Positions 1 through 19,401 of a stretch of 32,000 bases of DNA are shown here, piece after piece. The notes below the pieces were generated by a model. It was given only the letters and a program-made list of their open reading frames with translations, searched no databases and was not told where the DNA came from. A program made the translations under genes and the position numbers. The stretch covers positions 2,220,001-2,252,000 of the forward strand of contig NC_010628.1 in NCBI RefSeq assembly GCF_000020025.1, in the 5' to 3' direction. Origin of the DNA: Nostoc punctiforme PCC 73102 (lineage in GTDB: Bacteria; Cyanobacteriota; Cyanobacteriia; Cyanobacteriales; Nostocaceae). The first letter of the stretch is position 1; every line of letters starts with the position of its first letter.

Positions 1-2170
1 GTTTGGATTCCAGAATCGGCTGCGCTCGTTCCCACAAAGGAACCACTTGCAAGACATCTATAATCGTGCCGCTGAGACTGGTAGCTCCACCGATAAATGT
101 GCCAAATGCTGCATTAAATGCTAAAAATACACCTGTAGATAAACCACCTTCTGGGGAATTGGCTTGCTGAAGTAAACTGCTGGCGAACCAGAAGAGGATT
201 GCTGTAGTCAATACAGGCAAGATTTTATTAATCACAGCCAGAGCATCTTCAATGCCTTGGGTACTCAGCATCCATTTGATTTGCTGACTATACTGTTTTC
301 CCCAAAAAGCAAAGGCGCGGGCTTCTGCGCCTGCAACTCGCAATTTGCTAACGCCGTTGATTAACTGCACCATTACCCCTGAGAGTTGTCCTTGTAACTC
401 TAGTAAGGGACGAACCTTCCGTAGAGTGTAAATTCCCGAAACCAGAGTAATAGTAATGTTGACAAAAGCAACAAGAGTGGCAATTAACGCTAGCGAACCG
501 TTGTAATAAAAAAGCAGTCCTAAATTCAGAAACGCGAACAAACTGGTGAAAATACTTCTAAGAACCGTGCTACTAAGCTTTTGGCGGATTTGGCTAATGG
601 CGCTTACCCGTGAATTTAAGTCTCCAGTTGAGTACTGACGGAAGAATGATGCTTTTAGATTCAATAACCGATCCCAGACTGCTGCTTGGGTGGAAGCATC
701 GGCAAAGGTTTCCACGCGCATGATTGCAAAGCCTTGAGCAAGTTGAAACAAGGTGCTACCAAATGCAGTTGCTAGCAGCGCTAAGGCAATTTGCACTAAT
801 AAGCCGCGATTGGCATCAGGAATGGCACTGTCAATCAAGATGGCCATAGCTTGGGGGACAATCATTCCTAATAAACTCGTCGCCATACCCGCAGCCAAGA
901 CAATCAACAATTCCTTGTAGTGTCCTTGGAGAGCAAATTTCAGTAAATCGATGGTGGTGAGAACTTTATCAGGTAATGGGCGATAGAAGGTATAGCCCGT
1001 TAGCGCCAGTTTAATCGCACTTTTAGCATTAACCGGAGTGCGCGATCGCTTAATTGGATCAAAAATCTCATAGCGGGTATCAGACACAGGTAACAGCGCC
1101 ACAGGATTGTTATCTTCTAGCGTGTAAGCCAGCATTGCACCGCAATCCTTCTTCCACCATTGACCTTGTAAAGCGATCGTTCGGGTTCGTAAACGAGAAG
1201 CACGAGCGATCGCTTGTAGCGGATCTTGAACTCGTTTCAGGTCTTCAGACTTAGCTGGTGGTCGAATCGTCACACCCAAAGTTCGCCCCACAGCACCCGC
1301 AGCAATCAGCAAAGCTTGGTCAAAATCATTGGCTTCAATTTGAGCAGAAGCGGCAATTTGTGGAGATTGCAGCAACGAGGCTAACTCGCCCAGCGTCTCC
1401 TTCATTACATGATCGTTGAGGTGTTGCCGTTCTTGAAATCGGTTTAATTCTACCGCTTTTTCTTGCTGTTCCAGAAGAAAAAGACTCTGAAGAAAGTAGA
1501 CTTGAATTTGGAAAATCCCCCTCAACAGAGTATTTCCATCCTCAATCTCAGACGTAGTTAGGATTTCTAGCTCGGTTGTATCTTCAGCTTGAAACCACAT
1601 ATCTGCGCTCAACGGCACCAATCCTGATTGAGGCATGACTAAGAGTGTCTCAAACCCCATCCAAACCGCATAACCACGCTGAATTTGCACCCAGGATACC
1701 AGTTCTCGCTGTGGTTGGAAAATCTGACCATTGCTGAGTGAGAAATAGCGAACCCCTTCTTCTTGAAACGGCAGTCCAGGTGGAGTAATAGAAGACAGCG
1801 CCAATCCTAGTTGCTCAATCCATCCCTCTATTAAAGTTACGGCTTCACCATTGCGATCGCTAATAAATTCCCGAAAATCTTTCCTTGAAACTTTCATAAG
1901 TTCCGTTTCTTCAATCGACACCGCCAGAAGTTGATACGGTATCGGCTGAGAATCACTAATGATGCCAAACATTGCCTGTCTAGTTCGGGTGGTAAATAAA
2001 TAGCGGCGACTTCCCTCAGCAATTCCCTCTTTCACCGGAATCGCAAACACCGCTAATGAACCCGATTTTACGATCCAAATCGTCTTCGGGTCATTGAGAA
2101 TAATTGGCTCATTGCCTTTGAAGTGATAGTACTCTCCCGGCAGGGTAGCGCTGCGAATTTGATCTAACAT
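1..2170 (-). CDS. ABC transporter subunit, partial (3' end beyond the left edge). It has an N-terminal cNMP-binding-like domain, a non-catalytic C39-like region and an ABC membrane domain. It resembles the peptidase-less second transporter of NHLP/Nif11-type bacteriocin export cassettes.
   Basis: It is missing from the ORF track because no stop falls in the window. Manual translation from ATG at 2170-2168 gives MLDQIRSATLPGEYYHFKGNEPIILNDPKTIWIVKSGSLAVFAIP..., and the same frame is still open at base 2 (...IIDVLQVVPLWERAQPILESK). Multiple hydrophobic helices typical of an ABC membrane domain lie in the 3' half. No minus-strand ORF of 60 aa or more is listed here, which fits one open-ended ORF. 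Confidence 0.75.
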   Translation of the reverse strand, partial: MLDQIRSATLPGEYYHFKGNEPIILNDPKTIWIVKSGSLAVFAIPVKEGIAEGSRRYLFTTRTRQAMFGIISDSQPIPYQLLAVSIEETELMKVSRKDFREFISDRNGEAVTLIEGWIEQLGLALSSITPPGLPFQEEGVRYFSLSNGQIFQPQRELVSWVQIQRGYAVWMGFETLLVMPQSGLVPLSADMWFQAEDTTELEILTTSEIEDGNTLLRGIFQIQVYFLQSLFLLEQQEKAVELNRFQERQHLNDHVMKETLGELASLLQSPQIAASAQIEANDFDQALLIAAGAVGRTLGVTIRPPAKSEDLKRVQDPLQAIARASRLRTRTIALQGQWWKKDCGAMLAYTLEDNNPVALLPVSDTRYEIFDPIKRSRTPVNAKSAIKLALTGYTFYRPLPDKVLTTIDLLKFALQGHYKELLIVLAAGMATSLLGMIVPQAMAILIDSAIPDANRGLLVQIALALLATAFGSTLFQLAQGFAIMRVETFADASTQAAVWDRLLNLKASFFRQYSTGDLNSRVSAISQIRQKLSSTVLRSIFTSLFAFLNLGLLFYYNGSLALIATLVAFVNITITLVSGIYTLRKVRPLLELQGQLSGVMVQLINGVSKLRVAGAEARAFAFWGKQYSQQIKWMLSTQGIEDALAVINKILPVLTTAILFWFASSLLQQANSPEGGLSTGVFLAFNAAFGTFIGGATSLSGTIIDVLQVVPLWERAQPILESK

Positions 2171-2335
2171 ATATATTCCTGCTCCCTAAAATTAATATAA
2201 AATCGAATAATTTTTGACATTTAACGTGTATACTTACCTCTTGCCTCATCCGAGATCGGCTAAAAATTTCAGACAAACATTAATCAACACCAACTCTCTA
2301 AAATGAAACAACAGATTTAACTCTGACCTTTCCGC

Positions 2336-2366
2336 AATTTTTAATTTTTGATTTTTAATTTTTAAT
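2336..2366. repeat. Tandem heptamers (AATTTTT/GATTTTT) in the spacer between the two ABC genes
   Basis: aattttt aattttt gattttt aattttt read directly from the sequence. Resembles STRR-type heptamer repeats of heterocystous cyanobacteria. Confidence 0.6.
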
Positions 2367-2371
2367 TCTAA

Positions 2372-4636
2372 TCACTCCTCCTGAGCCGCTTCCCCTTCAC
2401 TGCGAATCAATTGCAAATACTTACCTTCAACCTTCTGCAATTCTTCATGGCTACCGCGTTGTACCACCTTGCCGCGATCGAAGACAATAATTTCGTCACA
2501 ATCCCGAATTGTGCTTAACCGATGCGCCACAATTACACAAGTACAGCCACGCTCCCGGAGTCTCTGATCGATCGTCTTTTCTGCCTCGGAATCAAGCGCA
2601 CTGGTCGCTTCATCCATCACCAAAATTGCCGGATTATTCACTAAAGTGCGGGCAATTTCTAATCGCTGTCGCTGCCCACCGCTCAAATTAGATGCCCCTT
2701 CTGCGAGGTCAGCGTTGTAGCCTCCAGGCATGGAAAGTACTACATCCTGAATAGCGGCATCTTTACAAGCGCGAACCAAGTTACTAAAAGGAACAGTCGA
2801 ATCCCAAAGCGTAAGATTGTCGCGCACAGTGCCTGCAAATAGTGAGATATCTTGCTCAACAAGCGCAATTGAATTAGTCAGAATCGATCGCGGAATATGT
2901 TTTCTGGGTTTACCATCAAATAAAATCTCTCCCGCCCACTGTTCGTATAATCCACACACCAACTTGGCGACGGTTGACTTACCCGAACCACTGCCACCCA
3001 CTAAAGCAACTCGTTGACCGGGTTTAAGTGAAAGACTAAAATTTTCGATTAAGGGAGGTGCAGAGCGGTTATAGCCAAAGGTGATATTACGGAGTTCAAC
3101 ATAGCCCTGAAGTCGAACGTTTGCGGCAGGTAGTTGAGTTGGCGATATACTAATGTCTCGCTCTACGGCAGGATCGATCGGATTGCGTAACACATCATCT
3201 AACCTACCCAAATTGCCTTCCATTTCCTGGAGTTCACCCGCTAAACTCACCAGATTATTTACAGGCTCTAAAAATCTTTGCATCAAGGCTTGAAAGGCAA
3301 TGAGCATCCCAATACTGAGTACACCATCCATTACCCGTAGCCCTCCCACCGCTAGCAAAAGCATGGATGTAATGGAGGTGAGAAATGACGGCAATACACC
3401 TAGGTTTTGATTAGTCGTATCCATTTCTTGCCGAGCATTAATTGCCTTAGCGTAATAACCTGCCCAGCGCGAAAAGAATTCTGACTCTAGCCCGGATGCT
3501 TTGAGCGTTTCCATACTTTGCAGTCCAGAAATCGCTACTCCATTGACTTTGCCTTGTTCTTGCATTAATCGCAAGTTGGCATCGACGCGCTGCCGTGAAA
3601 CCCATCGCCACACGCTGACATTCACGATTACAAAGGCAATGCCGATCGCAGTGAGAACGACATCATATTGCAACATGACTGCGGCATAAAAGATAACGGT
3701 GAAGGCTGAAATTACTGTCGTCGCTAATCTTCCTGAGAGCAGATTCGCCAAGCTATCGTTGAGGCGGACACGGCTACTAATTTCACCAGCAAATCGCTGA
3801 TCGTAAAAACTCACTGGCAGCCGGAGAATATGCCACAAGAATCGGCTAGACATCCCCACAGCCAGCTTAATTTTCATGCGTCGCAAAAATTGCAACTGAA
3901 GCAATGTTAAAAAACCATTCAATATGGCTGTGAGGATCATCCCTAAAATTAATGGTCGCAACCAATCACTTCTGCCTTCAATCAAAACATTATCAACAAA
4001 GGCTTGGGAGAACGCAGGGATGGCTAATCCGGGAATCACTAACAGCAAACCAGCGATCACACAATAAACCAATGCTCCTAGAGAACTCTGCAATCGATCC
4101 CATAAGGATAATGTCAGGCTCGGTTTCCGTCCTCCTGGCTGGAATTCTGCACTCGGTTCACCAACTAGTACTACCCCGGTAAAAGACTGATCGAATTCTG
4201 GGAGTGAAACTGTGCGCGGCCCGGTGGCAGGATCGTTAAGATAAACTTTGTCTTTGGCAAATCCTTCGACTATTAGAAAATGGTTGAAATTCCAAAAGAC
4301 AATATAAGGACATTGCAGTTTGCGTAACCCAGCTAAATCGACCTTAAAGCCTTTTGCCTGCAAACCATAGCTGCGAGCCGCATTGAGAATATTAGATGCT
4401 TTACTGCCATCTCGGGAAACACCACAAGCTTGACGGAGTTCTGCAAGGGGTACAATGCGATTATAGTATCCTAAAATAATTCCCAGTGCGGCTGCACCGC
4501 ATTCCACTGCCTCCATTTGTAAGAGGGTGGGAGTCCGACGACGGCGATCGGGACGGCTGAAGAGCCGTTGAAATTTTTTAAATCGAAGCCCAATTTGTGA
4601 TTGAATTTGCCGCATAATCAATACATTCCACTCCAC
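2372..4636 (-). CDS. Bacteriocin/peptide-exporting ABC transporter with an N-terminal C39 peptidase domain (peptidase + permease + ATPase)
   Basis: C39 motifs: QMEAVECGAAAL (catalytic Cys), NFNHFLIVEGF (His), YLNDPA (Asp). Walker A GGSGSGKST, ABC signature LSGGQRQR, Walker B ILVMDEATSALD. An alternative start at 4615-4613 (MRQIQSQ...) lies 2 nt after the HlyD stop and suggests translational coupling. Confidence 0.92.
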   Translation of the reverse strand: MEWNVLIMRQIQSQIGLRFKKFQRLFSRPDRRRRTPTLLQMEAVECGAAALGIILGYYNRIVPLAELRQACGVSRDGSKASNILNAARSYGLQAKGFKVDLAGLRKLQCPYIVFWNFNHFLIVEGFAKDKVYLNDPATGPRTVSLPEFDQSFTGVVLVGEPSAEFQPGGRKPSLTLSLWDRLQSSLGALVYCVIAGLLLVIPGLAIPAFSQAFVDNVLIEGRSDWLRPLILGMILTAILNGFLTLLQLQFLRRMKIKLAVGMSSRFLWHILRLPVSFYDQRFAGEISSRVRLNDSLANLLSGRLATTVISAFTVIFYAAVMLQYDVVLTAIGIAFVIVNVSVWRWVSRQRVDANLRLMQEQGKVNGVAISGLQSMETLKASGLESEFFSRWAGYYAKAINARQEMDTTNQNLGVLPSFLTSITSMLLLAVGGLRVMDGVLSIGMLIAFQALMQRFLEPVNNLVSLAGELQEMEGNLGRLDDVLRNPIDPAVERDISISPTQLPAANVRLQGYVELRNITFGYNRSAPPLIENFSLSLKPGQRVALVGGSGSGKSTVAKLVCGLYEQWAGEILFDGKPRKHIPRSILTNSIALVEQDISLFAGTVRDNLTLWDSTVPFSNLVRACKDAAIQDVVLSMPGGYNADLAEGASNLSGGQRQRLEIARTLVNNPAILVMDEATSALDSEAEKTIDQRLRERGCTCVIVAHRLSTIRDCDEIIVFDRGKVVQRGSHEELQKVEGKYLQLIRSEGEAAQEE

Positions 4637-6075
4637 GATCGCAGAATCGGAAACACAAAGGAAATCGGGGATTGTTCATCCACTTTTACACGCACTGAAG
4701 TAGTGGTTCCTGGTGTAATTTGGCTATTTGGCCCTTTAGAGGATGACCACCGAAAATGGCTTTTAGTCGAGGGATCTGGCTCAAGTTCCGCAAAAACTTG
4801 AATTTGTGCGCCTTCTGTGGTTAACCCTTGTAAAACTTCTAGACCACCGACAACACTTGATGCGCTTTCCTTACTAACCGGAAATGCAGAAATACTTGTG
4901 ACTTTCCCGATAATACCACCAAAGCGTTCTCGTTTAACGGTCGAAGGAGTGACTTGCAACTCCATCCCCTTTTGAATCTTTTTGCCTTCGCTGACCGGGA
5001 AGAATGCCACCCCAACTAACTTATTCCCGGAGTCTCTAGCTTCGATTGTGCCAATGCGAGCGCCCTTTTCCAGGGTTTGTCCAGGAACAGCAGAAAGTTC
5101 TAGAATTCGTCCATTGAAATTGCTAGTAACCTGGCTGTTTGCCTTGATTTCTAATTTTAATTCTGCGATCGCTCGCTGGGTGTCTTGAATTTCTTTTCTT
5201 CGATTAGTAGAAATAGCTAAATCTTGTTCTGCTTGCCCAGCAAACTTACTGTCTAATACTGCTAACTGTGCTTGCAGTTCTTTTGTTGAATTGATATTTG
5301 CTAAGAATTCTCTTTCTGCATCCGCTTCTTTAACATTAAGTTGTTTGAGTTGCGATTCGATTTCATTGATTTTGGTTTTACTGTTGAGAAATTCCTGTTG
5401 CGCCTGAAGAACGGTATCACTCGAAACTGCTCCTTCTTCGCGTAGCTTTTGGCGAATGTCAAATCGTTCTTTGAACGTGGGCATCAAATCTCGCGTTGTC
5501 TGCAACTGTTCCTGTAAGTTCTGACGCTCTTGCCGAATCGACTCCAGACCTTTACTTCTGAGAATTGGTGTTAGTGATTGGGTTGTTTTGAGAGTTTGCA
5601 GGAGTGCTTGACGTTGTTGCCCAATTGCACCCTTATCTAAAACCGTTCGCTGAAGTTGCAGAGAATTGGCATTTTGGTCTTGTTCCTGAAGTTGAGCAAG
5701 CTTGACTCGTGCAAGTTTCAACTTATCTTGAAGTTCAGTTTGGTCGATTGTTGCTAGTACCTGTCCTTTCTTCACCTCATCGCCTGTACGAACAAAAAGC
5801 ATGAGAATCTGCCCGGAACTAGGAGACTGGAACCCAACGACTTTGCTAGGAAAAACCACTACGCCTTGTCCAGCTACAGTAATGGGAATGCGACCAAAAA
5901 CACTCCAAACAAGTCCAACAACAATTAGAGATCCCATCGCAGTTAACGGTATCCATTTCTTTGGTTGAACCACCTGCATGAGTTGATCGAGCCGCTCCGG
6001 GGAGGATAAACGATCGAGTGCTTCTTTGCGGAATAGATTGCTTTTGTTGGTCGTTACCATACTGACTCCATTCAA
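4618..6075 (-). CDS. HlyD-family membrane fusion / secretion adaptor protein
   Basis: N-terminal FRKEALDRLSSPERLDQL followed by one TM helix. A long Q/E/L-rich coiled-coil middle follows, then a C-terminal beta-barrel-like region. It lies directly upstream of, and overlaps, the C39-ABC gene. Confidence 0.85.
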   Translation of the reverse strand: MNGVSMVTTNKSNLFRKEALDRLSSPERLDQLMQVVQPKKWIPLTAMGSLIVVGLVWSVFGRIPITVAGQGVVVFPSKVVGFQSPSSGQILMLFVRTGDEVKKGQVLATIDQTELQDKLKLARVKLAQLQEQDQNANSLQLQRTVLDKGAIGQQRQALLQTLKTTQSLTPILRSKGLESIRQERQNLQEQLQTTRDLMPTFKERFDIRQKLREEGAVSSDTVLQAQQEFLNSKTKINEIESQLKQLNVKEADAEREFLANINSTKELQAQLAVLDSKFAGQAEQDLAISTNRRKEIQDTQRAIAELKLEIKANSQVTSNFNGRILELSAVPGQTLEKGARIGTIEARDSGNKLVGVAFFPVSEGKKIQKGMELQVTPSTVKRERFGGIIGKVTSISAFPVSKESASSVVGGLEVLQGLTTEGAQIQVFAELEPDPSTKSHFRWSSSKGPNSQITPGTTTSVRVKVDEQSPISFVFPILRSWSGMY

Positions 6076-6096
6076 GTTGTAGAAATTTGTATATTA

Positions 6097-6124
6097 GGGA
6101 ATTGGGAATTGGGAATGAGGGGAG
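6097..6124. repeat. Tandem heptamers (GGGAATT) between the CNB-like gene and the HlyD gene
   Basis: gggaatt gggaatt gggaatg aggggag read directly. Confidence 0.6.
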
Positions 6125-6185
6125 CAAAGGAAGTCGGGGAAAATCAGAGAGAAGAATTAATAACCTATGCCCAATGACAAATGAC

Positions 6186-7283
6186 CTAATTCCCGCGAAT
6201 CTGCTTCAGCATCCAATCAAATCGAGTCCCAGCCAATGTCACTTGAGCCAAAAAGCTCGAACTCAGTTCATCTTCATAAGTCAAGCGTTCATCTAAAGAT
6301 TTACCTGAGCTATAGTTAATCCTGCCGTAACCCAGACTATTGATGATTCCTTGCTGTTTATCTGCTAACAAAATCGCTAATACTCGATAAAATCGGGCAG
6401 CAAAACCCACATCGTGTAACAATTTGGCAGAAAGTCGCCATCTGGGAATCGATAACACAGTTGCATCCTCAACCGCCCGAATTGTCATCGCAGGTGGGCT
6501 GGCTTCGACAAAGGGCGTTTCGCCAACTATGTCACCCCGCGATAATCTTGCAAACTCCCGTTCGATATGATCTGTCTGTTCTAAAGTTGAAAAGGCGCGG
6601 GTGAGAGGATTGCTTGTATCTTCAGCAACGGAAGCCACCATCTTGCCATCTAATAAGATATAGAGAGCATCAACAGGTCTTCCGGCTTGAAACAACACCG
6701 TTCCCGCAGGAAGTCTCATAGCATTTCCTGCAACAATCATCCAACCAATATCGCTATCATTTAATTCTGCAAATGTAAATAAGATTTCTCGAATTTGGGG
6801 CTGAAAAAGCACGACTGTGCTTTGGCCAATTTGACCGATCATCTGCTCTAATCGGTGAGAAAGTAGAACTGCGATCGCTCGATAAAAATGGGCAGCAAAT
6901 GTGACATCTTCCTGCAATTTTTGAATCAACTGCTGCTGAGGAATCATCAACACAAGCGACTTTCTAGCGGCTTTGACTGTAGTTGAAGACTGGTAGGAGG
7001 CTAAAAAAGGCATTTCTCCTACAACTTCACCATTTGCCAGCAGTGCAACCTCTCGTCCTGACAGTTCGCCACCTTCAAGGGCGGCAAATGCCCGACCAAT
7101 GGGATTATCGTCAGCCTGAGCGACAGAAACGCTTAATGCACCATCAAGCAGAATGTAGAGAGCATCAACAGGTGTTCCTTGGCGGATGAGAATCGTACCA
7201 GCAGTAATTTCTTCTCTTTGACCCGTTGCCAATATCCAGTCAATATCGCTATTTGTCAGTTCCTTAAGTAGAACTTCTGTCAT
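6186..7283 (-). CDS. Protein with two tandem cyclic-nucleotide-binding-like (CAP effector) domains, associated with the transport genes
   Basis: Internal duplication: GTILIRQGTPVDALYILLDGALSV...GEVVGEMPFL and GTVLFQAGRPVDALYILLDGKMVAS...GDIVGETPFV. SD-like AAGGAAG lies 8 nt upstream of the ATG at 7283. Confidence 0.8.
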   Translation of the reverse strand: MTEVLLKELTNSDIDWILATGQREEITAGTILIRQGTPVDALYILLDGALSVSVAQADDNPIGRAFAALEGGELSGREVALLANGEVVGEMPFLASYQSSTTVKAARKSLVLMIPQQQLIQKLQEDVTFAAHFYRAIAVLLSHRLEQMIGQIGQSTVVLFQPQIREILFTFAELNDSDIGWMIVAGNAMRLPAGTVLFQAGRPVDALYILLDGKMVASVAEDTSNPLTRAFSTLEQTDHIEREFARLSRGDIVGETPFVEASPPAMTIRAVEDATVLSIPRWRLSAKLLHDVGFAARFYRVLAILLADKQQGIINSLGYGRINYSSGKSLDERLTYEDELSSSFLAQVTLAGTRFDWMLKQIRGN

Positions 7284-7330
7284 AATTTAACTTCCTTACG
7301 TTCTGCTAACGGGAGAGAAATAGAGAGGGG

Positions 7331-7351
7331 TAATTCGTAATTCGTAATTTA
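7331..7351. repeat. Tandem heptamers (TAATTCG)
   Basis: taattcg taattcg taattta read directly. Confidence 0.55.
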
Positions 7352-7395
7352 ATTTATGGTTCAGATATAGGGAAGCCTTAACTTAGACTTTCCGC

Positions 7396-7416
7396 AATTT
7401 TGAATTTTGAATTGTT
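7396..7416. repeat. Tandem heptamers (AATTTTG)
   Basis: aattttg aattttg aattgtt read directly. Preceded by the same ctttccgcaatttt motif seen at 2328-2341. Confidence 0.55.
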
Positions 7417-7471
7417 TAACTCCCCATTGCGCGATTGAACTAGGTTGATGAGTTGCTACAGGTTTTTAGCA

Positions 7472-7705
7472 TCAATCACCGCGACCTTCATTCGGCTCAA
7501 CGCTTATTGGTTTATTGTCATTCCAAGAAGGAAACTTTATATTCTCAAGCTTTTTTGCGATCGCTTCAGACAGATTGTTATATTTATCCTCCGTAGGATA
7601 CTCACCTGGATAATGCTCGCCTACGGCAATACCACCCGAAATATTTGCGAGTTCTTGAGGCGATAGCTCTTGTGATTCATTTTGCTTTTTGTTTTCCATT
7701 GCCAT
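7472..7705 (-). CDS. Double-glycine leader peptide P9 (divergent). Leader MAMENKKQNESQELSPQELANISGG; core IAVGEHYPGEYPTEDKYNNLSEAIAKKLENIKFPSWNDNKPISVEPNEGRGD.
   Basis: LSxxELxxIxGG leader motif. AAGGA lies 5 nt upstream of the ATG at 7705. The ORF track's longest version starts at 7720. Confidence 0.6.
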   Translation of the reverse strand: MAMENKKQNESQELSPQELANISGGIAVGEHYPGEYPTEDKYNNLSEAIAKKLENIKFPSWNDNKPISVEPNEGRGD

Positions 7706-7843
7706 TTTTTTCCTTGTCATTTCATTTATTACTAAATTTGCCTAATTTTCTGAAAGTGAAATTATTAATCACACAAGAATAATTTCAGAACGCAGTTGAG
7801 CGAAACTTGTCCAACTGCAATTGATTGATTTGAGAAACTCCGT

Positions 7844-8143
7844 TTATGTAGAACCTTCGATCGCAGATATATCTCCAAACAACTCACCAAGAACCTTTAG
7901 ATCCTCTGTTGTCGCGTCGGTGATGGAGAGGTGGAACACAGAAGAGTCTGTTGTCTCTGCATGAAAAGCCGACCGTTTTGAGTGAAACCCTCGTCCTCGT
8001 GATGTTTGTTGGCTAAATCCCCTTGTCGATCTATGAGATCGTATAGATGTAAACTGCAAATTGAAACCACCAGCTAAATCGTCTAACTCTTCATCTGATA
8101 GTTCGATCGCTTCATCATTCGGAGTAATTTCGTCACCTGACAT
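7844..8143 (-). CDS. Double-glycine leader peptide P8 (divergent). Leader MSGDEITPNDEAIELSDEELDDLAGG; the 73-aa core has an Arg/Lys/His-rich N-half and an acidic C-half.
   Basis: AAGGAG (rc of 8149-8154) lies 5 nt upstream of the ATG at 8143-8141. The ELSDEELDDLAGG leader matches its neighbours. The track ORF (to 8269) adds 42 residues with no leader-like character. Confidence 0.65.
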   Translation of the reverse strand: MSGDEITPNDEAIELSDEELDDLAGGFNLQFTSIRSHRSTRGFSQQTSRGRGFHSKRSAFHAETTDSSVFHLSITDATTEDLKVLGELFGDISAIEGST

Positions 8144-8265
8144 AGAAGCTCCTTGACCCCACATGTTAAATTTAAATAAGGCGGAGGGAGTTAACCGAGT
8201 GGCTGCTAGGCTCATGGTTAACAACCCCTCCTGCTCCTGAAATTTGTCAAACTGAGAAATCCAGA

Positions 8266-8505
8266 TCAAGCTTCAGGGCTAGAAATACCAGCTTCCTTAA
8301 ACTCTCTAAGGTCTTGCTCAGAGAAAACGCTCACTTGAAAGGTAACGCTCTTAATGCCGCCTTCTTTAGGAATTTCCACAAAACCAAACTGAAAATCTTC
8401 GGCATTTGCGTTTGTTCCCAAGACATCGCTAGTTGCGCCACCAGCAATATAATCAAGTTCTTGATTGGATAGTTCCAGCATTTCATTAGGCTGCACATTT
8501 TCCAT
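8266..8505 (-). CDS. Double-glycine leader peptide P7. Leader MENVQPNEMLELSNQELDYIAGG; core ATSDVLGTNANAEDFQFGFVEIPKEGGIKSVTFQVSVFSEQDLREFKEAGISSPEA.
   Basis: GG leader motif. The core shares the GGI and DLRE(I/F)K motifs with P1-P6. AAGGAG lies upstream at a rather long ~13-nt spacing. Confidence 0.7.
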   Translation of the reverse strand: MENVQPNEMLELSNQELDYIAGGATSDVLGTNANAEDFQFGFVEIPKEGGIKSVTFQVSVFSEQDLREFKEAGISSPEA

Positions 8506-8534
8506 GATCTTTGTCGTTCTCCTTGTGATGTTGA

Positions 8535-8792
8535 TTATGAGCCTAGAAAATTACTAGGAATTCCGCTAGGAAATTCTTCTCCAGTGAATTTGATTTCGCG
8601 CAAATCTTGTTGAGATATAGTAGTTTCCTGACTGTTGAAGGATGCAATGCCGCCATCAGCACCGATAATCACTGCACTAGTTTGCTTATCCGAAAAGTTG
8701 AAGTTGTGAGCATCAACAAAGCTAAAAGCACCACCAGCAACGTTGTCCAATTCCTCAGCAGATAGTTCTACGGGCTTAATGTTGTCAGACAT
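8535..8792 (-). CDS. Double-glycine leader peptide P6. Its leader is identical to the array copies and its core has diverged.
   Basis: MSDNIKPVELSAEELDNVAGG|AFSFVDAHNFNFSDKQTSAVIIGADGGIASFNSQETTISQQDLREIKFTGEEFPSGIPSNFLGS. GAGGAG SD lies ~9 nt upstream. Confidence 0.8.
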   Translation of the reverse strand: MSDNIKPVELSAEELDNVAGGAFSFVDAHNFNFSDKQTSAVIIGADGGIASFNSQETTISQQDLREIKFTGEEFPSGIPSNFLGS

Positions 8793-8839
8793 AATGTTTT
8801 CTCCTCAATTTGTGATATGTGTTAATTGAGTTCTAGTTA

Positions 8840-9079
8840 CTAACTTTCAATAGTGGTAGGAAAGAAGCCAGTTGCTTTGATTTCGTGCAAACTTTGATGA
8901 GATGTAGTAGTTTGTTGAGCGGTGGAAGAGCCAATCCCGCCATGAGGACCAAGCACGGTTTCACTAATTTGTTGATCTAATCTGTTGTCGTTGTCAGCAT
9001 CAACAAAGCTAAAAGCACCACCAGCAACGTTGTCCAATTCTTCAGCAGATAATTCTACGGGCTTAATGTTGTCAGACAT
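8840..9079 (-). CDS. Double-glycine leader peptide P5 (tandem-array copy; protein identical to P4)
   Basis: MSDNIKPVELSAEELDNVAGG|AFSFVDADNDNRLDQQISETVLGPHGGIGSSTAQQTTTSHQSLHEIKATGFFPTTIES. AAGGAG SD lies 9 nt upstream. Confidence 0.85.
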   Translation of the reverse strand: MSDNIKPVELSAEELDNVAGGAFSFVDADNDNRLDQQISETVLGPHGGIGSSTAQQTTTSHQSLHEIKATGFFPTTIES

Positions 9080-9134
9080 GATGTTTTCTCCTTAATGTGT
9101 AAAATGTGTAATGTGTATGATGTGTGTTGTATCA

Positions 9135-9160
9135 AGCAGAACGCTTTATTGAGTTCTGCT
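9135..9160 (-). promoter_or_regulatory. Intercistronic stem-loop between P4 and P5
   Basis: agcagaac (9135-9142) pairs with gttctgct (9153-9160): an 8-bp perfect stem with a 10-nt loop. No U-tract follows on the coding strand. Confidence 0.6.
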
Positions 9161-9175
9161 CTGTGTAATTAGTTA

Positions 9176-9415
9176 CTAACTTTCAATAGTGGTAGGAAAG
9201 AAGCCAGTTGCTTTGATTTCGTGCAAACTTTGATGAGATGTAGTAGTTTGTTGAGCGGTGGAAGAGCCAATCCCGCCATGAGGACCAAGCACGGTTTCAC
9301 TAATTTGTTGATCTAATCTGTTGTCGTTGTCAGCATCGACAAAGCTAAAAGCACCACCAGCAACGTTGTCCAATTCTTCAGCAGATAATTCTACGGGCTT
9401 AATGTTGTCAGACAT
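9176..9415 (-). CDS. Double-glycine leader peptide P4 (tandem-array copy; protein identical to P5)
   Basis: Same 79-aa product as 8840-9079. AAGGAG SD. Confidence 0.85.
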   Translation of the reverse strand: MSDNIKPVELSAEELDNVAGGAFSFVDADNDNRLDQQISETVLGPHGGIGSSTAQQTTTSHQSLHEIKATGFFPTTIES

Positions 9416-9461
9416 GATGTTTTCTCCTTAATGTGTAATGTGTATGATGTGTGTTGTATCA

Positions 9462-9487
9462 AGCAGAACGCTTTATTGAGTTCTGCT
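9462..9487 (-). promoter_or_regulatory. Intercistronic stem-loop between P3 and P4
   Basis: The same 8-bp stem: 9462-9469 pairs with 9480-9487. Confidence 0.6.
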
Positions 9488-9502
9488 CTGTGTAATTAGT
9501 TA

Positions 9503-9742
9503 CTACTTTTCAATAGTGGTAGGAAAGAAGCCAGTTGCTTTGACTTCGTACAAACTTTGATGAGATGTAGTAGTTTGTTGAGCGGTGGAAGAGCCAATCC
9601 CGCCATGAGGACCAAGCACGGTTTCACTAATTTGTTGATCTAATCTGTTGTCGTTGTCAGCATCGACAAAGCTAAAAGCACCACCAGCAACGTTGTCCAA
9701 TTCTTCAGCAGATAATTCTACGGGCTTAATGTTGTCAGACAT
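9503..9742 (-). CDS. Double-glycine leader peptide P3 (tandem-array copy; protein identical to P2)
   Basis: Differs from P4/P5 only at the C-terminus (SLYEVKATGFFPTTIEK). AAGGAG SD. Confidence 0.85.
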   Translation of the reverse strand: MSDNIKPVELSAEELDNVAGGAFSFVDADNDNRLDQQISETVLGPHGGIGSSTAQQTTTSHQSLYEVKATGFFPTTIEK

Positions 9743-9788
9743 GATGTTTTCTCCTTAATGTGTAATGTGTATGATGTGTGTTGTATCA

Positions 9789-9813
9789 AGCAGAACGCTT
9801 TATTGAGTTCTCT
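9789..9813 (-). promoter_or_regulatory. Degenerate copy of the intercistronic stem-loop between P2 and P3
   Basis: A 1-nt deletion (gttctgct becomes gttctct) shortens the stem to ~5 bp. Confidence 0.4.
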
Positions 9814-9828
9814 CTGTGTAATTAGTTA

Positions 9829-10068
9829 CTACTTTTCAATAGTGGTAGGAAAGAAGCCAGTTGCTTTGACTTCGTACAAACTTTGATGAGATGTAGTAGT
9901 TTGTTGAGCGGTGGAAGAGCCAATCCCGCCATGAGGACCAAGCACGGTTTCACTAATTTGTTGATCTAATCTGTTGTCGTTGTCAGCATCAACAAAGCTA
10001 AAAGCACCACCAGCAACGTTGTCCAATTCTTCAGCAGATAATTCTACGGGCTTAATGTTGTCAGACAT
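9829..10068 (-). CDS. Double-glycine leader peptide P2 (tandem-array copy; protein identical to P3)
   Basis: Same 79-aa product as 9503-9742. AAGGAG SD. Confidence 0.85.
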   Translation of the reverse strand: MSDNIKPVELSAEELDNVAGGAFSFVDADNDNRLDQQISETVLGPHGGIGSSTAQQTTTSHQSLYEVKATGFFPTTIEK

Positions 10069-10108
10069 GATGTTTTCTCCTTAATGTGTATGATGTGTGT
10101 TGTATCAA

Positions 10109-10132
10109 GCAGAATGCTTTATTGAGTTCTGC
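10109..10132 (-). promoter_or_regulatory. Intercistronic stem-loop between P1 and P2 (6-bp version)
   Basis: gcagaa (10109-10114) pairs with ttctgc (10127-10132). The closing pair is mismatched. Confidence 0.5.
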
Positions 10133-10148
10133 CCTGTCTAATTAGTTA

Positions 10149-10388
10149 CTACTTTTCAATAGTGGTAGGAAAGAAGCCAGTTGCTTTGACTTCGTACAAA
10201 CTTTGATGAGATGTAGCAGTTTGTTGAGCGGTGGAAGAGCCAATCCCGCCATGAGGACCGATAACGGTTTCACTAATTTGTTGATCTAATTTGTTGTCGT
10301 TGTCAGCATCGACAAAGCTAAAAGCACCACCAGCAACGTTGTCCAATTCTTCAGCAGATAATTCTATGGGTTGAATGTTGTCAGACAT
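10149..10388 (-). CDS. Double-glycine leader peptide P1 (first gene of the array; a few substitutions relative to P2/P3)
   Basis: MSDNIQPIELSAEELDNVAGG|AFSFVDADNDNKLDQQISETVIGPHGGIGSSTAQQTATSHQSLYEVKATGFFPTTIEK. AAGGAG SD. Confidence 0.85.
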   Translation of the reverse strand: MSDNIQPIELSAEELDNVAGGAFSFVDADNDNKLDQQISETVIGPHGGIGSSTAQQTATSHQSLYEVKATGFFPTTIEK

Positions 10389-10825
10389 GATGTTTTCTCC
10401 TTAATGTGTAATGTGTGTTATTTATCAAGCAGAGAGAGTGATTTACTGCTTAGTCGCTTACCGCTTCCCTCGCTTGATGTCTCTACAATACGAAATCAAC
10501 TTAGCTATGTACATCTGAAAAACGTCTAGGATTTCACCTAAGCGAAGTAAGTAGATGTCGTCTAACTTTCGCTATATGGTATTGGGCAATGCGTAAGACT
10601 TTCGTCATAGGCTAACCCAGCTAGTTACTACAAAAGTCATGGATTTGCTTTCAGATGTGGCATTTCACTGCAATATCGTAGTATGACTAAACGTGGAAGC
10701 ACGAATGCAAAATTAGGATCGGTCCCAAGAAATGAGAGCATTCTACATCCATCACTAAATCAACTAAATTAAGAAATTATAGTTATCAGTCTCTAGCAAT
10801 GTTGTAAATAAAAACTCAAACAACA

Positions 10826-11887
10826 ATGTTTAATAGATTCAAATTAGCAACTAAATTTACTTTACTTTTATTGCTGGTGTTCATCGGCGCGATCGCAGTT
10901 AGTGGTTTTGCTTTATCTCATGCACTTGAGCAAAAAGCAGAAGCCGAAATTGCTTATCGCAGCCAAGTTATTGCAGAAACTATGAACTCAGTGAGGAACT
11001 ATACACACACGCGTATCAATCCTCTTCTGACACCAATGCTGGACACTCAAGCCACATTTCTCCCTGAAGTTGTTCCCAGCTTTGCAGTAAGAGAAGTGTT
11101 TGAAAATCTTCGGAAAAACGAAGATTTTAAAGATTTTTTATACAAAGATGCCAACCTAAACCCAACTAACTTACGAGATAAAGCAGATGTATTTGAAACG
11201 GAACTTATCGAACGATTTCGCAAGGAACCAGGGTTGAAAAACATATCCGGTTTTCATGAATCTTATGACGAGAAAATGTTTTATAACGCTCGTCCATTTT
11301 CCATTAATAATCCAACGTGTCTACGCTGTCATAGCACTCCTGAAGTTGCTCCAAAAAGTCAGATTGCTAGTTATGGTTCAGAAAATGGCTTTGGGTGGAA
11401 ACTCAATGAAATTTTAGGCACACAAATTATTTATATTCCTGCCAAACAAGTCTTTGAGGATGCTCATCGTGCTTTTGTTTTATTCATTAGCTTATTTATT
11501 ACGATCTTCGCCATCATGATTTTGCTCATTAATTATTTGTTAAAGCGAAATGTACTACAACCGCTTAAACCAATGGCACAACTTGCTCAGAAAATTAGTA
11601 TGAATGAGATTAGTGTCGAAGAAGCACAAGAGTACGATCGTGAAAAGCTAACATCGATTGTGCAACGTCATGATGAATTAGGACAATTAGGACGAGTTTT
11701 TCAACGCATGGTGCATGAAATTTCTGCCCGTGAACAACAGTTCAGACAACAGTTGCATACACTGCGTATAGAAGTTGATGAAGCTAAACGTGCGCGTGAA
11801 GTTGCAGAAATTGCTGAATCAAAAACATTCCAAAAATTGCAGGAGGAAGCAAAAGCAATCAGAAATAAACGGAATACTCCAAATTAA
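10826..11887 (+). CDS. Membrane sensor protein: periplasmic c-type-heme DUF3365 (Tll0287-like) domain, TM helix, HAMP domain and coiled coil, with no recognisable output domain
   Basis: N-terminal TM helix (FTLLLLLVFIGAIAVSGFAL). CxxCH heme-attachment motif in NNPTCLRCHSTPEVAP. Second TM helix (AFVLFISLFITIFAIMILLINYLL). HAMP-like LQPLKPMAQLAQKIS...DELGQLGRVFQRMVHEI, then a charged coiled coil to the stop. Confidence 0.7.
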   Translation: MFNRFKLATKFTLLLLLVFIGAIAVSGFALSHALEQKAEAEIAYRSQVIAETMNSVRNYTHTRINPLLTPMLDTQATFLPEVVPSFAVREVFENLRKNEDFKDFLYKDANLNPTNLRDKADVFETELIERFRKEPGLKNISGFHESYDEKMFYNARPFSINNPTCLRCHSTPEVAPKSQIASYGSENGFGWKLNEILGTQIIYIPAKQVFEDAHRAFVLFISLFITIFAIMILLINYLLKRNVLQPLKPMAQLAQKISMNEISVEEAQEYDREKLTSIVQRHDELGQLGRVFQRMVHEISAREQQFRQQLHTLRIEVDEAKRAREVAEIAESKTFQKLQEEAKAIRNKRNTPN

Positions 11888-11930
11888 TAATTAAGAATTA
11901 CGAATTAAAAATTAGTATTGAGGATTTATT

Positions 11931-12725
11931 ATGTCTGAAATTATTTCCATTCACTCATTCCGAGGCGGAACTGGTAAGTCAAATGTTACGAGTAATCTTG
12001 CTGCCCTAATCGCTCGTTCTGGAAAACGAGTTGGGATAGTTGATACAGATATCCAATCTCCAGGAATCCACGTTCTATTTGGTCTTGAACAAGAGCGAAT
12101 TCGCTACACATTGAACGATTATCTATGGGGTCGTTGTCAAATTGAAGAAGCCGTTTATGACGTTAGCGCCATTCTCAAACAAAAACAAACATTTTTTGGT
12201 CGCCAGGGAAGTGTTCATCTAATTCCTTCCAGCATTAAGATGAGTGACATTTCTCGAATCTTGCGCGAGGGCTATGACGCACGTCGACTGAATGATGGTT
12301 TACATAATCTAGTTCGCCGTTTAAAACTTGACTATCTGTTGATCGATACTCATCCTGGCATTAACGAAGAAACGTTACTATCTATTATTCTTTCTGATGT
12401 CCTGGTGCTGATTCTCCGTCCAGATAAACAGGATTATCAAGGTACAGCAGTGGCGATAGATGTTGCTCGTAAGCTAGAAGTACCTAAAATGCTAATAGTG
12501 ATCAACAAAGCTCTGCCATCTTTAGATTTCAAAGAGTTAGGGAAACGAGTGGAGAATACCTACAAAACCCCTGTGGCTGGAATACTCCCTGTTTGTGAAG
12601 AGATGTTTGAATTAGGGAGTGGTGGAATCTTCTGTTTGCGGTATCCAGATCATTCATGGACTCAAAAAATTAGTGCGATCGCCAAACAAATCACTGGTTC
12701 TGGAGTTAGATTGTTTGCCAAATAA
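11931..12725 (+). CDS. ParA/MinD-family P-loop ATPase
   Basis: Deviant Walker A SFRGGTGKSNVTSNLA, DTD switch-like motif, and Walker B-like LLIDTHPG. GAGGA SD lies 6 nt upstream. It starts 43 nt after the previous stop, so co-transcription is likely. Confidence 0.75.
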   Translation: MSEIISIHSFRGGTGKSNVTSNLAALIARSGKRVGIVDTDIQSPGIHVLFGLEQERIRYTLNDYLWGRCQIEEAVYDVSAILKQKQTFFGRQGSVHLIPSSIKMSDISRILREGYDARRLNDGLHNLVRRLKLDYLLIDTHPGINEETLLSIILSDVLVLILRPDKQDYQGTAVAIDVARKLEVPKMLIVINKALPSLDFKELGKRVENTYKTPVAGILPVCEEMFELGSGGIFCLRYPDHSWTQKISAIAKQITGSGVRLFAK

Positions 12726-17490: not shown

Positions 17491-19401
17491 TCACAAAATC
17501 GTTCCAGTTTCTTTCAAATAAACACGTGTAAATGGTTCATCTTCAGCCAAAGTATAATCTTCAATCAACCCTTTGCGACGGATAGAAATATCGTTGCCTT
17601 TTCTAATCACCACAGTAGAACCATCAAAGACATCCCGCGCCAGCATCATCTCAGTTTCGGTGGGATTATCCAAAACCACGATATTACTATTCCGGTAAAA
17701 CATCCCCTCTTCATCTAAGATGTCTTCCGCATATTCGGCAATCAGCAAATCAACTTTGGGATGACGGAGCAAAGTTTGGACGTTACTATTGTAATTTTTG
17801 CTTAATACTTTTTTCGAGCGATTCACAAAAACTGCATCACGACAAACAGCGCCAATTGTCCAGTTGGGATGTTGCAAAAGGATATGATCAATTGTTGTTT
17901 GCAGTTCTTCAACTGAGATTCTATTAAATGTGATAATCGGTATTCTCGAATCTGTACCCGACTCAAAAAAGGTTTCTAGAATATGAGAAGGTACATCAAC
18001 ACTTTCACCTTCAGAAGGTTTAAGATGCATTAAAACTCCTGGTGCAGCGTTAATTTCCAGGATAGCGAAGTTACTAGATTTCCAAGATTCGGAGAGACTT
18101 TTGGTAATGACATCAATACCAAGGCAAGTCAACTGGAAATGTTGGGCAATATCTTGCGCCAAGATAATATTGTCATCATGAACTGTGTGGGTTGCATCGA
18201 TGCTCATACCTCCGGCTGAAAGATTGGCAACTTTACGCAGGTAAACAGTGCGTCCTTTTTCAATCACACTGTCTAGTGATAAGCGCTGTTCCTCTAAGTA
18301 AAGTTCCATCGCTTCATCAATCTGAATTTTACTCATGGGTGAGGTGGGCGTATCTAAACGTGCAGGTTTGCGGTTTTCTAGGCGAATTAATTCTGCAAGC
18401 GTTAAGTAGCCATCACCGACAACCGATGCTGGACGGCGTTCTGTGGCGGCGACAAATCTGCCATTGACACACAACATCCGAAAATCCGATCCTGAAATAC
18501 TTTTCTCAACAATTATCCTAGTTACTTGATCTTCAGGAATCGCTGCTAATGCTCTATTATAAGCAGATTCCAGCTCTTTTGAGTCTTGTACGTCAGCCGT
18601 AACGCCAATTCCTTTATGACCTACCACTGGCTTAACTGCCACTGGGTAGCCAATTTCTCTTGCTGCTGCCAAGGCTTCCTTTTCAGAAAAGACGATATCG
18701 CCTTCAGGGACTGGGAAACCCAAGGTTTTTAGAAATGCTTTGCAGTCATCTTTACGGGTGGTAAACTCTGAATCTAGATGACTATCACAGTTAAATGTGG
18801 TTGCTACTCCTCGGACGTGTTTTTTTCCAAAGCCGTATTGCATTAATCCTTCTTCCCACAAATAAAAGGCGGGAATACCTTTTTCGTAGGCTGTTCGCAA
18901 TAGGGCGTAAACTGTGGGGCCACCATAGACAGACGCGCGAAATCTATTTTGCAGCCTCACTAGCTGCTCCTCAAAGTTAAAGTCTTCGTCTTGGGTAATG
19001 GCTTCAAACCAATCCCAAACAAAATAAACGACCTCTCTAGTTGTGCGTTCATGTAGTGATTGGACGCTAATTCGCACGAAATCTGGATATGGCTTAACAC
19101 TCCAATGCTTAAGGTGCAAATCCATATCAAGTTTTCCGACTTCGGACACAACTTGGGCAAATAGATAGGCATGGGACTCGTAGCTTTGGCTGCCCAGATT
19201 TGGATAGCGATCGCCAATGCTTGCAATATAATCGTCTATGGGCAAAGGCTCTCTAGAGTCCACTAGAGCAAAGTCAAATACTAACGCCCCTGCATCTAAA
19301 TAGGGGTTGGGGCCAACATAATGCTTGAAGTTGAAAATATCGAATACATCCGTTCTTCTAGCATTAATGCGAACTAAGTCACTGCTTTTTTGTAGAACCA
19401 T
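17491..19401 (-). CDS. cphA2: Cyanophycin synthetase 2-like protein: short CphA form with an N domain, an ATP-grasp domain and a truncated M domain
   Basis: At 636 aa it is much shorter than the ~900-aa CphA1. ATP-grasp region: YPVAVKPVVGHKGIGVT...RIIVEKSISGSDFRMLCVNGRFVAA. It is divergently paired with a cyanophycinase gene, as described for the Anabaena cph2 cluster. Confidence 0.7.
   Translation of the reverse strand: MVLQKSSDLVRINARRTDVFDIFNFKHYVGPNPYLDAGALVFDFALVDSREPLPIDDYIASIGDRYPNLGSQSYESHAYLFAQVVSEVGKLDMDLHLKHWSVKPYPDFVRISVQSLHERTTREVVYFVWDWFEAITQDEDFNFEEQLVRLQNRFRASVYGGPTVYALLRTAYEKGIPAFYLWEEGLMQYGFGKKHVRGVATTFNCDSHLDSEFTTRKDDCKAFLKTLGFPVPEGDIVFSEKEALAAAREIGYPVAVKPVVGHKGIGVTADVQDSKELESAYNRALAAIPEDQVTRIIVEKSISGSDFRMLCVNGRFVAATERRPASVVGDGYLTLAELIRLENRKPARLDTPTSPMSKIQIDEAMELYLEEQRLSLDSVIEKGRTVYLRKVANLSAGGMSIDATHTVHDDNIILAQDIAQHFQLTCLGIDVITKSLSESWKSSNFAILEINAAPGVLMHLKPSEGESVDVPSHILETFFESGTDSRIPIITFNRISVEELQTTIDHILLQHPNWTIGAVCRDAVFVNRSKKVLSKNYNSNVQTLLRHPKVDLLIAEYAEDILDEEGMFYRNSNIVVLDNPTETEMMLARDVFDGSTVVIRKGNDISIRRKGLIEDYTLAEDEPFTRVYLKETGTIL

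Follow-up and report, generated by a model that had tools for sequence, protein, structure and literature searches.

A published double-glycine peptide export cassette in Nostoc punctiforme PCC 73102, with the sensor gene pair linked to it

At the left end of a 32,000-nucleotide stretch of the Nostoc punctiforme PCC 73102 chromosome (contig NC_010628.1, positions 2,220,001 to 2,252,000; hereafter the window), nine small genes encode peptides with a double-glycine (GG) leader and are followed by the genes of a peptide exporter. This locus was identified, with little room for doubt, as the published group V double-glycine peptide cluster Npun_R1802–R1814 of that strain. It is one copy of a cassette kept in heterocystous and in some filamentous non-heterocystous cyanobacteria, in which a membrane sensor gene and a MinD/ParA-like ATPase gene accompany the peptide genes. 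As a whole, the best explanation of the locus, a sensor-linked cassette for the export of unmodified peptides, is held with good confidence; a role of these peptides as matrix or cell-surface material is proposed more tentatively.

The coordinates of all nine peptide open reading frames (ORFs), once raised by 2,220,000, reproduce exactly the Table S3 entries Npun_R1806–R1814 on CP001037, from Npun_R1806 (2227472–2227720) to Npun_R1814 (2230149–2230388). The same locus, with hlyD as Npun_R1804, is the "group V" example in Figure 2 of Wang, Fewer and Sivonen (2011; PMC3140520). These authors defined group V by a short ATP-binding cassette (ABC) transporter with a C39 peptidase domain (C39-ABC), an extra ABC transporter without C39, an HlyD protein, and a protein with two CAP_ED domains (PMC3140520). 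Judged by domain content, all of these are found in the window next to GG precursors, and the two compositions are identical. Exact-sequence look-up returned ACC80468 for Npun_R1806, with ACC80467 (cyclic-nucleotide-binding, CNB, protein), ACC80477 (sensor), and ACC80478 (ATPase) as neighbours; that of one peptide, P0001, returned no record. The A peptide is 100% identical to the NCBI entry 'CTB family bacteriocin [Nostoc punctiforme]', a family name given to six of the nine peptides in the NCBI annotation. Since coordinates, figure, and accessions all agree, the present finding is a rediscovery of a published and annotated cluster: the literature, NCBI, and Pfam already cover this locus, the class to which it belongs, and the family of its peptides. 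The novelty implied by the first-pass annotation of this DNA is thereby lost, the nine peptides having been tabulated (PMC3140520) and their family curated. The description of group V (Wang et al., 2011) is silent on the pair of sensor and ATPase genes, on the fixed set of five peptide types, and on function, and the modest new value of this work lies in the conserved five-type peptide set, a hairpin prediction, and the linkage to the sensor and MinD-like genes.

The features of the cassette are, in window coordinates:

2–2170, minus strand: second ABC transporter (ABC2; presumably Npun_R1802), N-terminal 723 of 975 aa; partial TIGR03797 match of 549.5 bits in the window
2372–4615, minus strand: C39-ABC transporter (ABC1; presumably Npun_R1803), with an alternative GTG start at 4636
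4618–6075, minus strand: HlyD-type periplasmic adaptor (Npun_R1804), likely start ATG 6060
6186–7283, minus strand: two-CNB-domain protein (Npun_R1805, ACC80467); TIGR03896, and PF00027 twice
7472–7720, minus strand: E-type GG-leader peptide (Npun_R1806, ACC80468), core of 52 aa, outside the CTB family
7844–8143, minus strand: D-type GG-leader peptide (Npun_R1807; Table S3), core of 73 aa
8266–8505, minus strand: C-type GG-leader peptide (Npun_R1808; Table S3), divergent CTB member
8535–8792, minus strand: B-type CTB peptide (Npun_R1809; NF038167), 85 aa, single copy
8834–10416, minus strand: A-type CTB tandem array of five genes (Npun_R1810–R1814), from Tandem Repeats Finder (TRF) and NF038167
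10149–10388, 9829–10068, 9503–9742, 9176–9415, and 8840–9079, minus strand: the A copies, 79 aa each
10389–10825, no strand: divergent intergenic region of 437 bp, separating the sensor gene from the first peptide gene
10826–11887, plus strand: membrane sensor (presumably Npun_F1815, ACC80477); PF11845, HAMP
11931–12725, plus strand: MinD/ParA-family ATPase (presumably Npun_F1816, ACC80478); PF10609, PF13614, PF01656

The ORF list and a check of the frame at the left edge bore out the thirteen co-oriented minus-strand genes of the first-pass annotation, and the Shine–Dalgarno (SD) sites that it had reported for most genes are indeed present as SD-like AAGGAG or GAGGAG motifs. The ORF of ABC1 spans 2372–4636, and gene callers place its start at the ATG at 4615. 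The cluster had been drawn too narrowly, however: the conserved partner genes at 10826–12725 had been left out, and the conserved unit extends rightward to 12725.

The peptide family and the conserved cassette

All nine peptides share the leader consensus M..(E)LSxxELDx(V/I/L)(A/S)GG. When a regular expression of the type ELSxxELDx[VIL][AS]GG was run over the six frames of the 32 kb, it matched exactly the nine peptide ORFs and nothing else, a chance control that confirms the nine double-glycine peptide genes first reported. The core lengths of 52–73 aa and the absence of Cys from all nine N. punctiforme cores also agree with the earlier description, as does the net charge of the array copies, computed as −4 to −5 where roughly −5 had been estimated; the values for the other types are −5 (B), −6 (C), 0 (D), and −4 (E). 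Ser, Thr, Asn, and Gln make up 19–38% of the cores. Calculated average masses without modification are 6186.6, 6244.7, and 6191.6 Da (A cores), 6874.4 Da (B), 6025.5 Da (C), 8063.7 Da (D), and 5875.3 Da (E). A leader length of about 21–26 aa holds for most of the peptides, but the E leader has 30 aa when counted from the first ATG; from the better-supported ATG at 7705 it has 25. In other strains, D-type orthologues often have one Cys, so that the Cys-free character is strain-specific for this type. In the D-type alignment, at a column near residue 63 of the window peptide, most orthologues place this Cys within the turn of the predicted hairpin (GSGC-GS), where N. punctiforme has Phe-His. The five A genes form a tandem repeat with a period of 327 bp (4.8 copies, 96% matches; TRF), each copy having its own SD site and the spacers measuring 80–96 nt.

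The curated CTB family (NF038167, PF28158) takes in eight of the nine peptides. Against NF038167, a 72-position profile that aligned with residues 1–69, the A and B types scored 58.9 and 55.5 bits (cutoff 32), whereas D (27.9 bits) and C (24.7 bits) fell below this threshold. In precomputed Pfam data, PF28158 'CTB' is assigned to D (the identical protein and its homologues) and, as a 'weak' match on contig L001, to C, which also aligns with the A and B types. No CTB-family match was obtained for the E type with NF038167. The family (NF038167 is called 'cyan_ocin_like') was built on exactly such cyanobacterial tandem peptides, and its bacteriocin function is asserted by its name; no paper that we located tests this function or reports activity of a CTB peptide, and the origin of the name 'CTB' could not be traced. 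The first-pass annotation had considered that the cores might fall into a characterised family of known function. A curated family is indeed matched, but the function of that family is asserted by its name alone. In a search of 1.84 billion representative proteins, a profile made from the cores alone recovered no more than about six true clusters, in each of which the GG leader is the same, and this indicates that the Nostoc-type core is narrow; the Pfam CTB family extends to more divergent cores in Leptolyngbya and Tolypothrix. Three further matches to this profile (P0046, P0051, and P0052) were rejected as repeat or low-complexity artefacts.

In agreement with the first-pass annotation, the leaders are of neither the NHLP nor the Nif11 type. 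The NHLP model TIGR03793 matched only D, below threshold (E 0.06, 13.2 bits versus 50.9) and over the last 20 leader positions, and the Nif11-type model TIGR03798 gave no match at E ≤ 0.1 when the five distinct peptide types were scanned. The label 'NHLP' that was attached to the nine peptides by Wang et al. (2011) finds no support in TIGR03793 and, given the results with both models, appears to be a loose one.

Scanning one genome per species yielded 21 related loci, and the comparison took in 24 related loci; PCC 7120 was not among the scan matches and possibly lacks the cassette. By tblastn and ORF clustering, the conserved block reads MinD/ParA-like <- Tll0287/HAMP <- / -> peptides -> CNB -> HlyD -> ABC1 -> ABC2; across 19 loci it contains the sensor, the ATPase, the peptides, the CNB protein, HlyD, and two ABC transporters only. 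It is sharply bounded, and the flanking genes vary between loci. The order of the peptide genes is fixed: A in one to seven copies, B, C, D, and then E in one or two copies. This order is kept in Nostoc, Aulosira, and Tolypothrix and, with fewer peptide types, in a Leptolyngbyaceae and an Oscillatoriales metagenome-assembled genome. D is the most widely retained peptide across the loci; E orthologues occupy the same position in most loci and were not detected in a few. In Nostoc linckia FACHB-104 (L021, 10001–10555) and Calothrix membranacea FACHB-236 (L022, 10001–11013), unrelated cores (AGIEQLLAKDFDAS... and LVEVTQVAAVETNF...) stand behind a near-identical leader at the A/B/C positions, while the D and E types are retained, which indicates an exchange of cargo inside a cassette that is otherwise conserved.

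The pairwise ratio of nonsynonymous to synonymous substitution rates (dN/dS), which is noisy at such short gene lengths, is about 0.05–0.25 for the leaders and 0.1–0.5 for the B and C cores. For the D core it is mostly 0.4–0.7 in more diverged pairs and 1.0–1.35 in the closest pairs, which differ by very few substitutions. On the basis of these ratios, the peptide genes are judged to be constrained coding sequences, with cores under purifying selection and not fast-diversifying.

Short-read Nostoc assemblies break in or next to the A array (L001/L002/L003, L008, L009, L012, and L020), and CTB copy numbers in draft genomes are thus probably undercounted. Each A copy also contains, in another frame, a GTG-started ORF of 43 aa (MKPCLVLMAGLALPP...; minus strand, 8833–8964, 9169–9300, 9496–9627, 9822–9953, and 10142–10273). 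It was dismissed as an artefact, being interrupted in several orthologous copies. In one database protein, P0043, the A-copy frame and this 43-aa frame are fused through a frameshift.

Exporter, sensor pair, and predicted peptide structure

The resemblance of the transport module to that of NHLP/Nif11 precursors, noticed in the first-pass annotation, is supported: each of the four proteins scores above the curated cutoff, equivalog or subfamily, of models that were built for this export system, called NHLM (Haft et al., 2010; PMC2887384). ABC1 scored 1184.8 bits against TIGR03796 (cutoff 853.3, profile positions 1–710), HlyD 395.6 bits against TIGR03794 (cutoff 156.2), the CNB protein 400.1 bits against TIGR03896 (cutoff 161.05), and full-length ABC2 (975 aa, contig L003, same strain) 1062.7 bits against TIGR03797 (cutoff 709.4). 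Unlike the NHLM system, in which leaders are roughly 80–90 aa long (NHLP/Nif11), the window locus has leaders of 21–30 aa and is without an adjacent cyclodehydratase or LanM gene. In ABC1, which matches PF03412 (Peptidase_C39, 121.6 bits), PF00664, and PF00005, the catalytic Cys, His, and Asp reported earlier are in place (Cys39, His112, and Asp128, in addition to Gln33), as are Walker A, LSGGQ, and Walker B; the protein aligns over its full length with the solved peptidase-containing ABC transporter (PCAT) PCAT1 (4RY2, E 3.5e-95) and with ComA. In ABC2, an N-terminal extension that gave a weak cNMP-binding-like match precedes a transmembrane domain, and the nucleotide-binding domain lies past the left edge of the window; its motifs are canonical (Walker A, ISGGQ, and Walker B-Glu). 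A degenerate C39-like domain in ABC2 (QxxxxxCG at 337) was considered and rejected, as BLASTP found no similarity to the peptidase domain of ABC1.

From these family memberships, a mechanism of export can be proposed that is very probably correct in outline. The nine precursors would be translated with leaders of 21–30 aa, which the C39 domain of ABC1 (Cys39/His112/Asp128) would cut after Gly-Gly; ABC1, ABC2, HlyD, and a TolC-like channel encoded elsewhere would then export the unmodified 52–73-aa cores. The two-CNB-domain protein, and possibly also the weakly CNB-like N-terminus of ABC2, may link export to a cyclic nucleotide.

No tailoring gene was found in the window, where Pfam and NCBIfam scans took in every ORF outside the cluster with a length of 90 aa or more, nor in about 3 kb past its left edge (contig L003), nor in the conserved block, in keeping with the first-pass annotation. 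Since the conserved block, compared across 19 loci, contains no gene other than those listed above and nothing enzymatic flanks it, the products are taken to be unmodified. The absence of an immunity gene likewise stands, as the conserved block holds no extra gene beside the structural genes, although an unlinked or atypical immunity factor may exist. Two candidates for hidden immunity genes, an antisense 45-aa ORF (7645–7782) and the 43-aa ORF of the A copies, contain stop codons in orthologues. It had also been envisaged that a tailoring or immunity gene just past the left edge might redefine the cluster; in same-strain contigs, the end of ABC2 is followed by 27 nt, a gene for a secreted DUF3455 protein, and a molybdopterin oxidoreductase gene. 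The DUF3455 gene (198 aa, signal peptide, L003 9523–10119, on the operon strand) follows ABC2 in the Nostoc loci L005, L011, L012, and L014 and is absent from this position in N. carneum and Tolypothrix (L016 and L018), where another gene replaces it. It is therefore not a core member, and was set aside as an immunity or accessory member of the cassette; it may be a Nostoc-specific accessory gene.

The A precursor was modelled with AlphaFold2 from a 39-sequence alignment. The model has a short leader helix and one long β-hairpin (strands 22–43 and 49–70, 2 × 22 residues) with its turn at an invariant G..GG; the predicted local distance difference test (pLDDT) is 83–87 in the arms and 71.5 on average, and the predicted template modelling score (pTM) is 0.30. 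For D, the same hairpin was predicted (mean pLDDT 69), with a C-terminal helix over the conserved TEDLKVLGEL (TITDATTEDLKVLGELFG). Positions of Asn, Gln, and Ser are invariant in the A alignment, from which we read that neither face of the hairpin is hydrophobic. Foldseek found nothing significant in the PDB; the top look-alikes were stems of β-barrel pores (E ≥ 0.55). A membrane-spanning β-barrel pore was rejected, because neither face is hydrophobic and the best E value of 0.55 is not significant.

In the sensor, two transmembrane segments, read by eye from the sequence, flank a periplasmic Tll0287-like PAS domain that bears CxxCH; the second segment is followed by HAMP and then by a short coiled coil. 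PF11845 scored 146.9 bits and HAMP 31.5 bits, and the CxxCH haem-c site (165–169) is invariant in 15 homologues of 55–77% identity. Pfam and NCBIfam detected no catalytic output domain and no kinase domain. The ATPase has a variant Walker A, RGGTGKS, and a sub-threshold match to minD_arch (90.5). The genetic linkage of this pair to the cassette is clear: it is present in all 19 loci with an upstream flank, with the ATPase downstream of the sensor, and the genes beyond the pair differ. The reverse test, started from sensor homologues of 56–65% identity in four contexts, recovered CTB genes in three, the fourth being interrupted by a contig end. A complete cassette lies beside the sensor homologue in Leptolyngbya NIES-3755, and in Calothrix PCC 7507 the pair adjoins the cassette in a rearranged orientation. 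In Tolypothrix tenuis PCC 7101 (L027, 7762–12105; AP018248, about 3.93 Mb), a paralogous Tll0287/HAMP and ParA pair is divergent from a second CTB array of four 85-aa genes and an 82-aa Pro/Ser-rich GG peptide, and the flanks shown, 10 kb to each side, contain no transporter gene; the full, orthologous cassette (L018) is about 350 kb away. As the pair stands beside CTB genes even where no transporter is near, the linkage is to the peptide genes themselves. No paper that we located mentions this coupling. Because the pair is divergent from the peptide genes and co-inherited with them, it probably controls their expression or the deployment of their products upon a periplasmic redox or gas signal, and it offers, as a strictly linked haem sensor and MinD-like protein, a point of access to their regulation.

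A 57%-identical Tll0287/HAMP gene in Coleofasciculus FACHB-T130 (L028, 149–1728) is followed by a NADAR-domain gene, not a ParA-like one. A NADAR gene also occurs in the window (21573–22043), about 9 kb from the pair, and this co-occurrence is probably a coincidence.

Function of the exported peptides

For the cores themselves, it is tentatively proposed, by analogy with EbfG1–4 and from models of moderate confidence, that, once exported, they assemble by themselves into material of the matrix or cell surface; an antagonistic activity may come in addition. Among the EbfG proteins of Synechococcus elongatus PCC 7942, EbfG1–3 are amyloid-forming, EbfG4 belongs to the matrix, and they depend on the C39 exporter PteB (PMC4997328, PMC9981879). 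There, as in N. punctiforme, tandem genes for small GG-motif proteins lie upstream of those for a C39-ABC and an HlyD protein; the EbfG products are secreted with no known modification, and their role is in the matrix, at the cell surface, or in amyloid rather than in killing. To our knowledge, the EbfG proteins are the only unmodified GG-leader peptides of cyanobacteria to have been tested. Unlike the window locus, the PteB cluster is probably of group III, with no second ABC transporter and no CNB protein, and only group I and III clusters are listed for PCC 7942 (Wang et al., 2011; PMC3140520); no Tll0287/HAMP–MinD pair has been reported at the PteB locus. A role in the matrix is favoured by the hydrophilic, acidic, Ser/Thr/Asn/Gln-rich composition of the cores, by the predicted hairpin with its invariant Asn, Gln, and Ser positions and no hydrophobic face, by purifying selection, and by the fact that no immunity gene was found; the five to seven near-identical copies suggest a demand for dosage.

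Several observations weigh against this proposal. No sequence similarity was found between the cores and EbfG, curli, or any amyloid family; as regards EbfG, this comes from the core-only profile, which matched CTB-type peptides only and was not a direct comparison, and mature EbfG had been described as without homologues in other cyanobacteria (Parnasa et al., 2016). The cores are hydrophilic and acidic, and composition alone is no predictor of aggregation. The confidence of the models is moderate (mean pLDDT 69–72, pTM 0.30–0.38), and AlphaFold2 often yields a lone hairpin for short β-prone peptides. Transcription, cleavage, and secretion are steps that we infer; control by a cyclic nucleotide is suggested by the presence of domains alone; and no output domain can be recognised in the sensor that would regulate the peptides. 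In the literature, the locus tags are named in searchable text by Wang et al. (2011) only, and no experiment on the locus was found. The only expression study found concerns Nodularia, in which CTB genes are induced by phosphorus starvation, are treated as bacteriocins, and are discussed as allelopathic (PMC9846622); this study and the curated name both say bacteriocin.

The alternative that survives best, and that is possible if somewhat doubtful, is that the cores are unmodified toxins of the class II microcin or bacteriocin type, directed against competing cyanobacteria. A GG leader with a C39-ABC and an HlyD protein, as a membrane fusion protein (MFP), is the classical class II export route (PMC3140520); the leader motif is found in all nine peptides and the exporter is present, with cleavage predicted. 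Class II microcins such as MccV, MccE492, and MccAB1 share with the window locus the GG leader, export through PCAT, MFP, and TolC, and acidic cores of 50–90 aa; they are unmodified or lightly modified, and some form amyloid. Enterobacterial class II microcins are anionic, Gly/Ser-rich, and Cys-poor, and the size of 52–73 aa, the acidity, and the Gly/Ser richness of the present cores are in this respect microcin-like. For this reason, the contrast that had been drawn between an anionic, Cys-free cargo and class II bacteriocins is a weak argument. The replacement of A/B/C cores in L021 and L022 recalls the cargo swapping typical of toxin loci, and the response to phosphorus starvation in Nodularia, where allelopathy was discussed (PMC9846622), and the name 'CTB family bacteriocin' point in the same direction. 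On the other hand, class II microcin loci have a small membrane immunity gene beside the toxin gene, whereas none was found here, the conserved block being without one and the small hydrophobic ORFs being broken by stops in orthologues. Moreover, the cores are hydrophilic, lack a hydrophobic face, have no sequence similarity to class II microcins, and, as orthologues, are under purifying rather than diversifying selection; several identical copies are unusual for a toxin, and the dosage and the fixed five-type set are not microcin-like. No activity data for CTB peptides were found in the literature. Killing and matrix formation can coexist, as the Acinetobacter baumannii microcin MccAB1 both builds amyloid biofilm fibres and kills (2026 study; PMC13188072), which makes the two readings compatible.

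A more specific scheme, in which self-assembly is tied to the sensor, is more doubtful still. In it, the CTB cassette would serve a sensor-coupled deployment of self-assembling β-hairpin peptides that are not bacteriocins, the haem-c Tll0287/HAMP protein acting through the MinD/ParA-type ATPase with no kinase. A would be an abundant major subunit and B–E four minor types, all exported unmodified, either as building blocks of extracellular or cell-surface material or as a signal. If a matrix or signalling role is true, the automatic label 'bacteriocin' on hundreds of cyanobacterial genes is misleading. With five fixed types, an amplified major type, and no tailoring step, the cassette is tractable in a genetically amenable strain.

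It is unlikely that one or more peptide types act as an autoinducer for which the neighbouring Tll0287/HAMP protein is the sensor, in the manner of the modules of GG-leader pheromone and sensor at Gram-positive bacteriocin and competence loci. The sensor is tied tightly and specifically to the peptide genes, even where a transporter is lacking; single-copy peptide types stand in conserved order; and in Synechococcus the expression of ebfG depends on cell density (PMC9981879). The invariant CxxCH, however, indicates a haem-based redox or gas sensor, not a peptide receptor. The block holds no kinase, response regulator, or DNA-binding protein, and no three-component module with an adjacent sensor kinase and response regulator was found, the partner of the sensor being the ATPase. 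Cores of 52–73 aa from genes in five to seven copies are also long and abundant for a signal.

[quoted passage not shown]

Intergenic sequences and neighbouring genes

Both promoters are presumed to lie within 10389–10825. No consensus sigma-70 promoter or terminator was found there (the scan gave fewer matches than shuffled sequence), and an Rfam scan of the whole window gave no match. Within the A array, an 8-bp perfect inverted repeat (AGCAGAAC / GTTCTGCT, with a 10-nt loop) is present at window positions 9135–9160 and 9462–9487, with similar sequence in the remaining array spacers; it does not match the terminator pattern, and could be an RNA-processing or stabilising hairpin after the array copies.

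To the right of the cluster, the sensor/ATPase pair is followed by genes for a ClC channel and a carbonic anhydrase, then by those for a truncated cyanophycin synthetase and a cyanophycinase, and finally by unrelated housekeeping genes. The ClC chloride channel (868 aa; 12857–15463, minus strand) is fused to two CBS and two universal-stress-protein domains, and its gene is syntenic in the closest Nostoc relatives only. The ATP-grasp gene at 17491–19401 (minus strand) was considered as a graspetide-type tailoring enzyme and rejected, since it encodes a truncated cyanophycin synthetase and is not conserved with the cassette; the 636-aa product matches the first ~580 positions of models with 862–871 positions. 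The cyanophycinase gene (20262–21104, plus strand; TIGR02069, 360.8 bits) is divergent from it, and the two look like a CphA2/CphB2-type pair that is unrelated to the peptide cluster.

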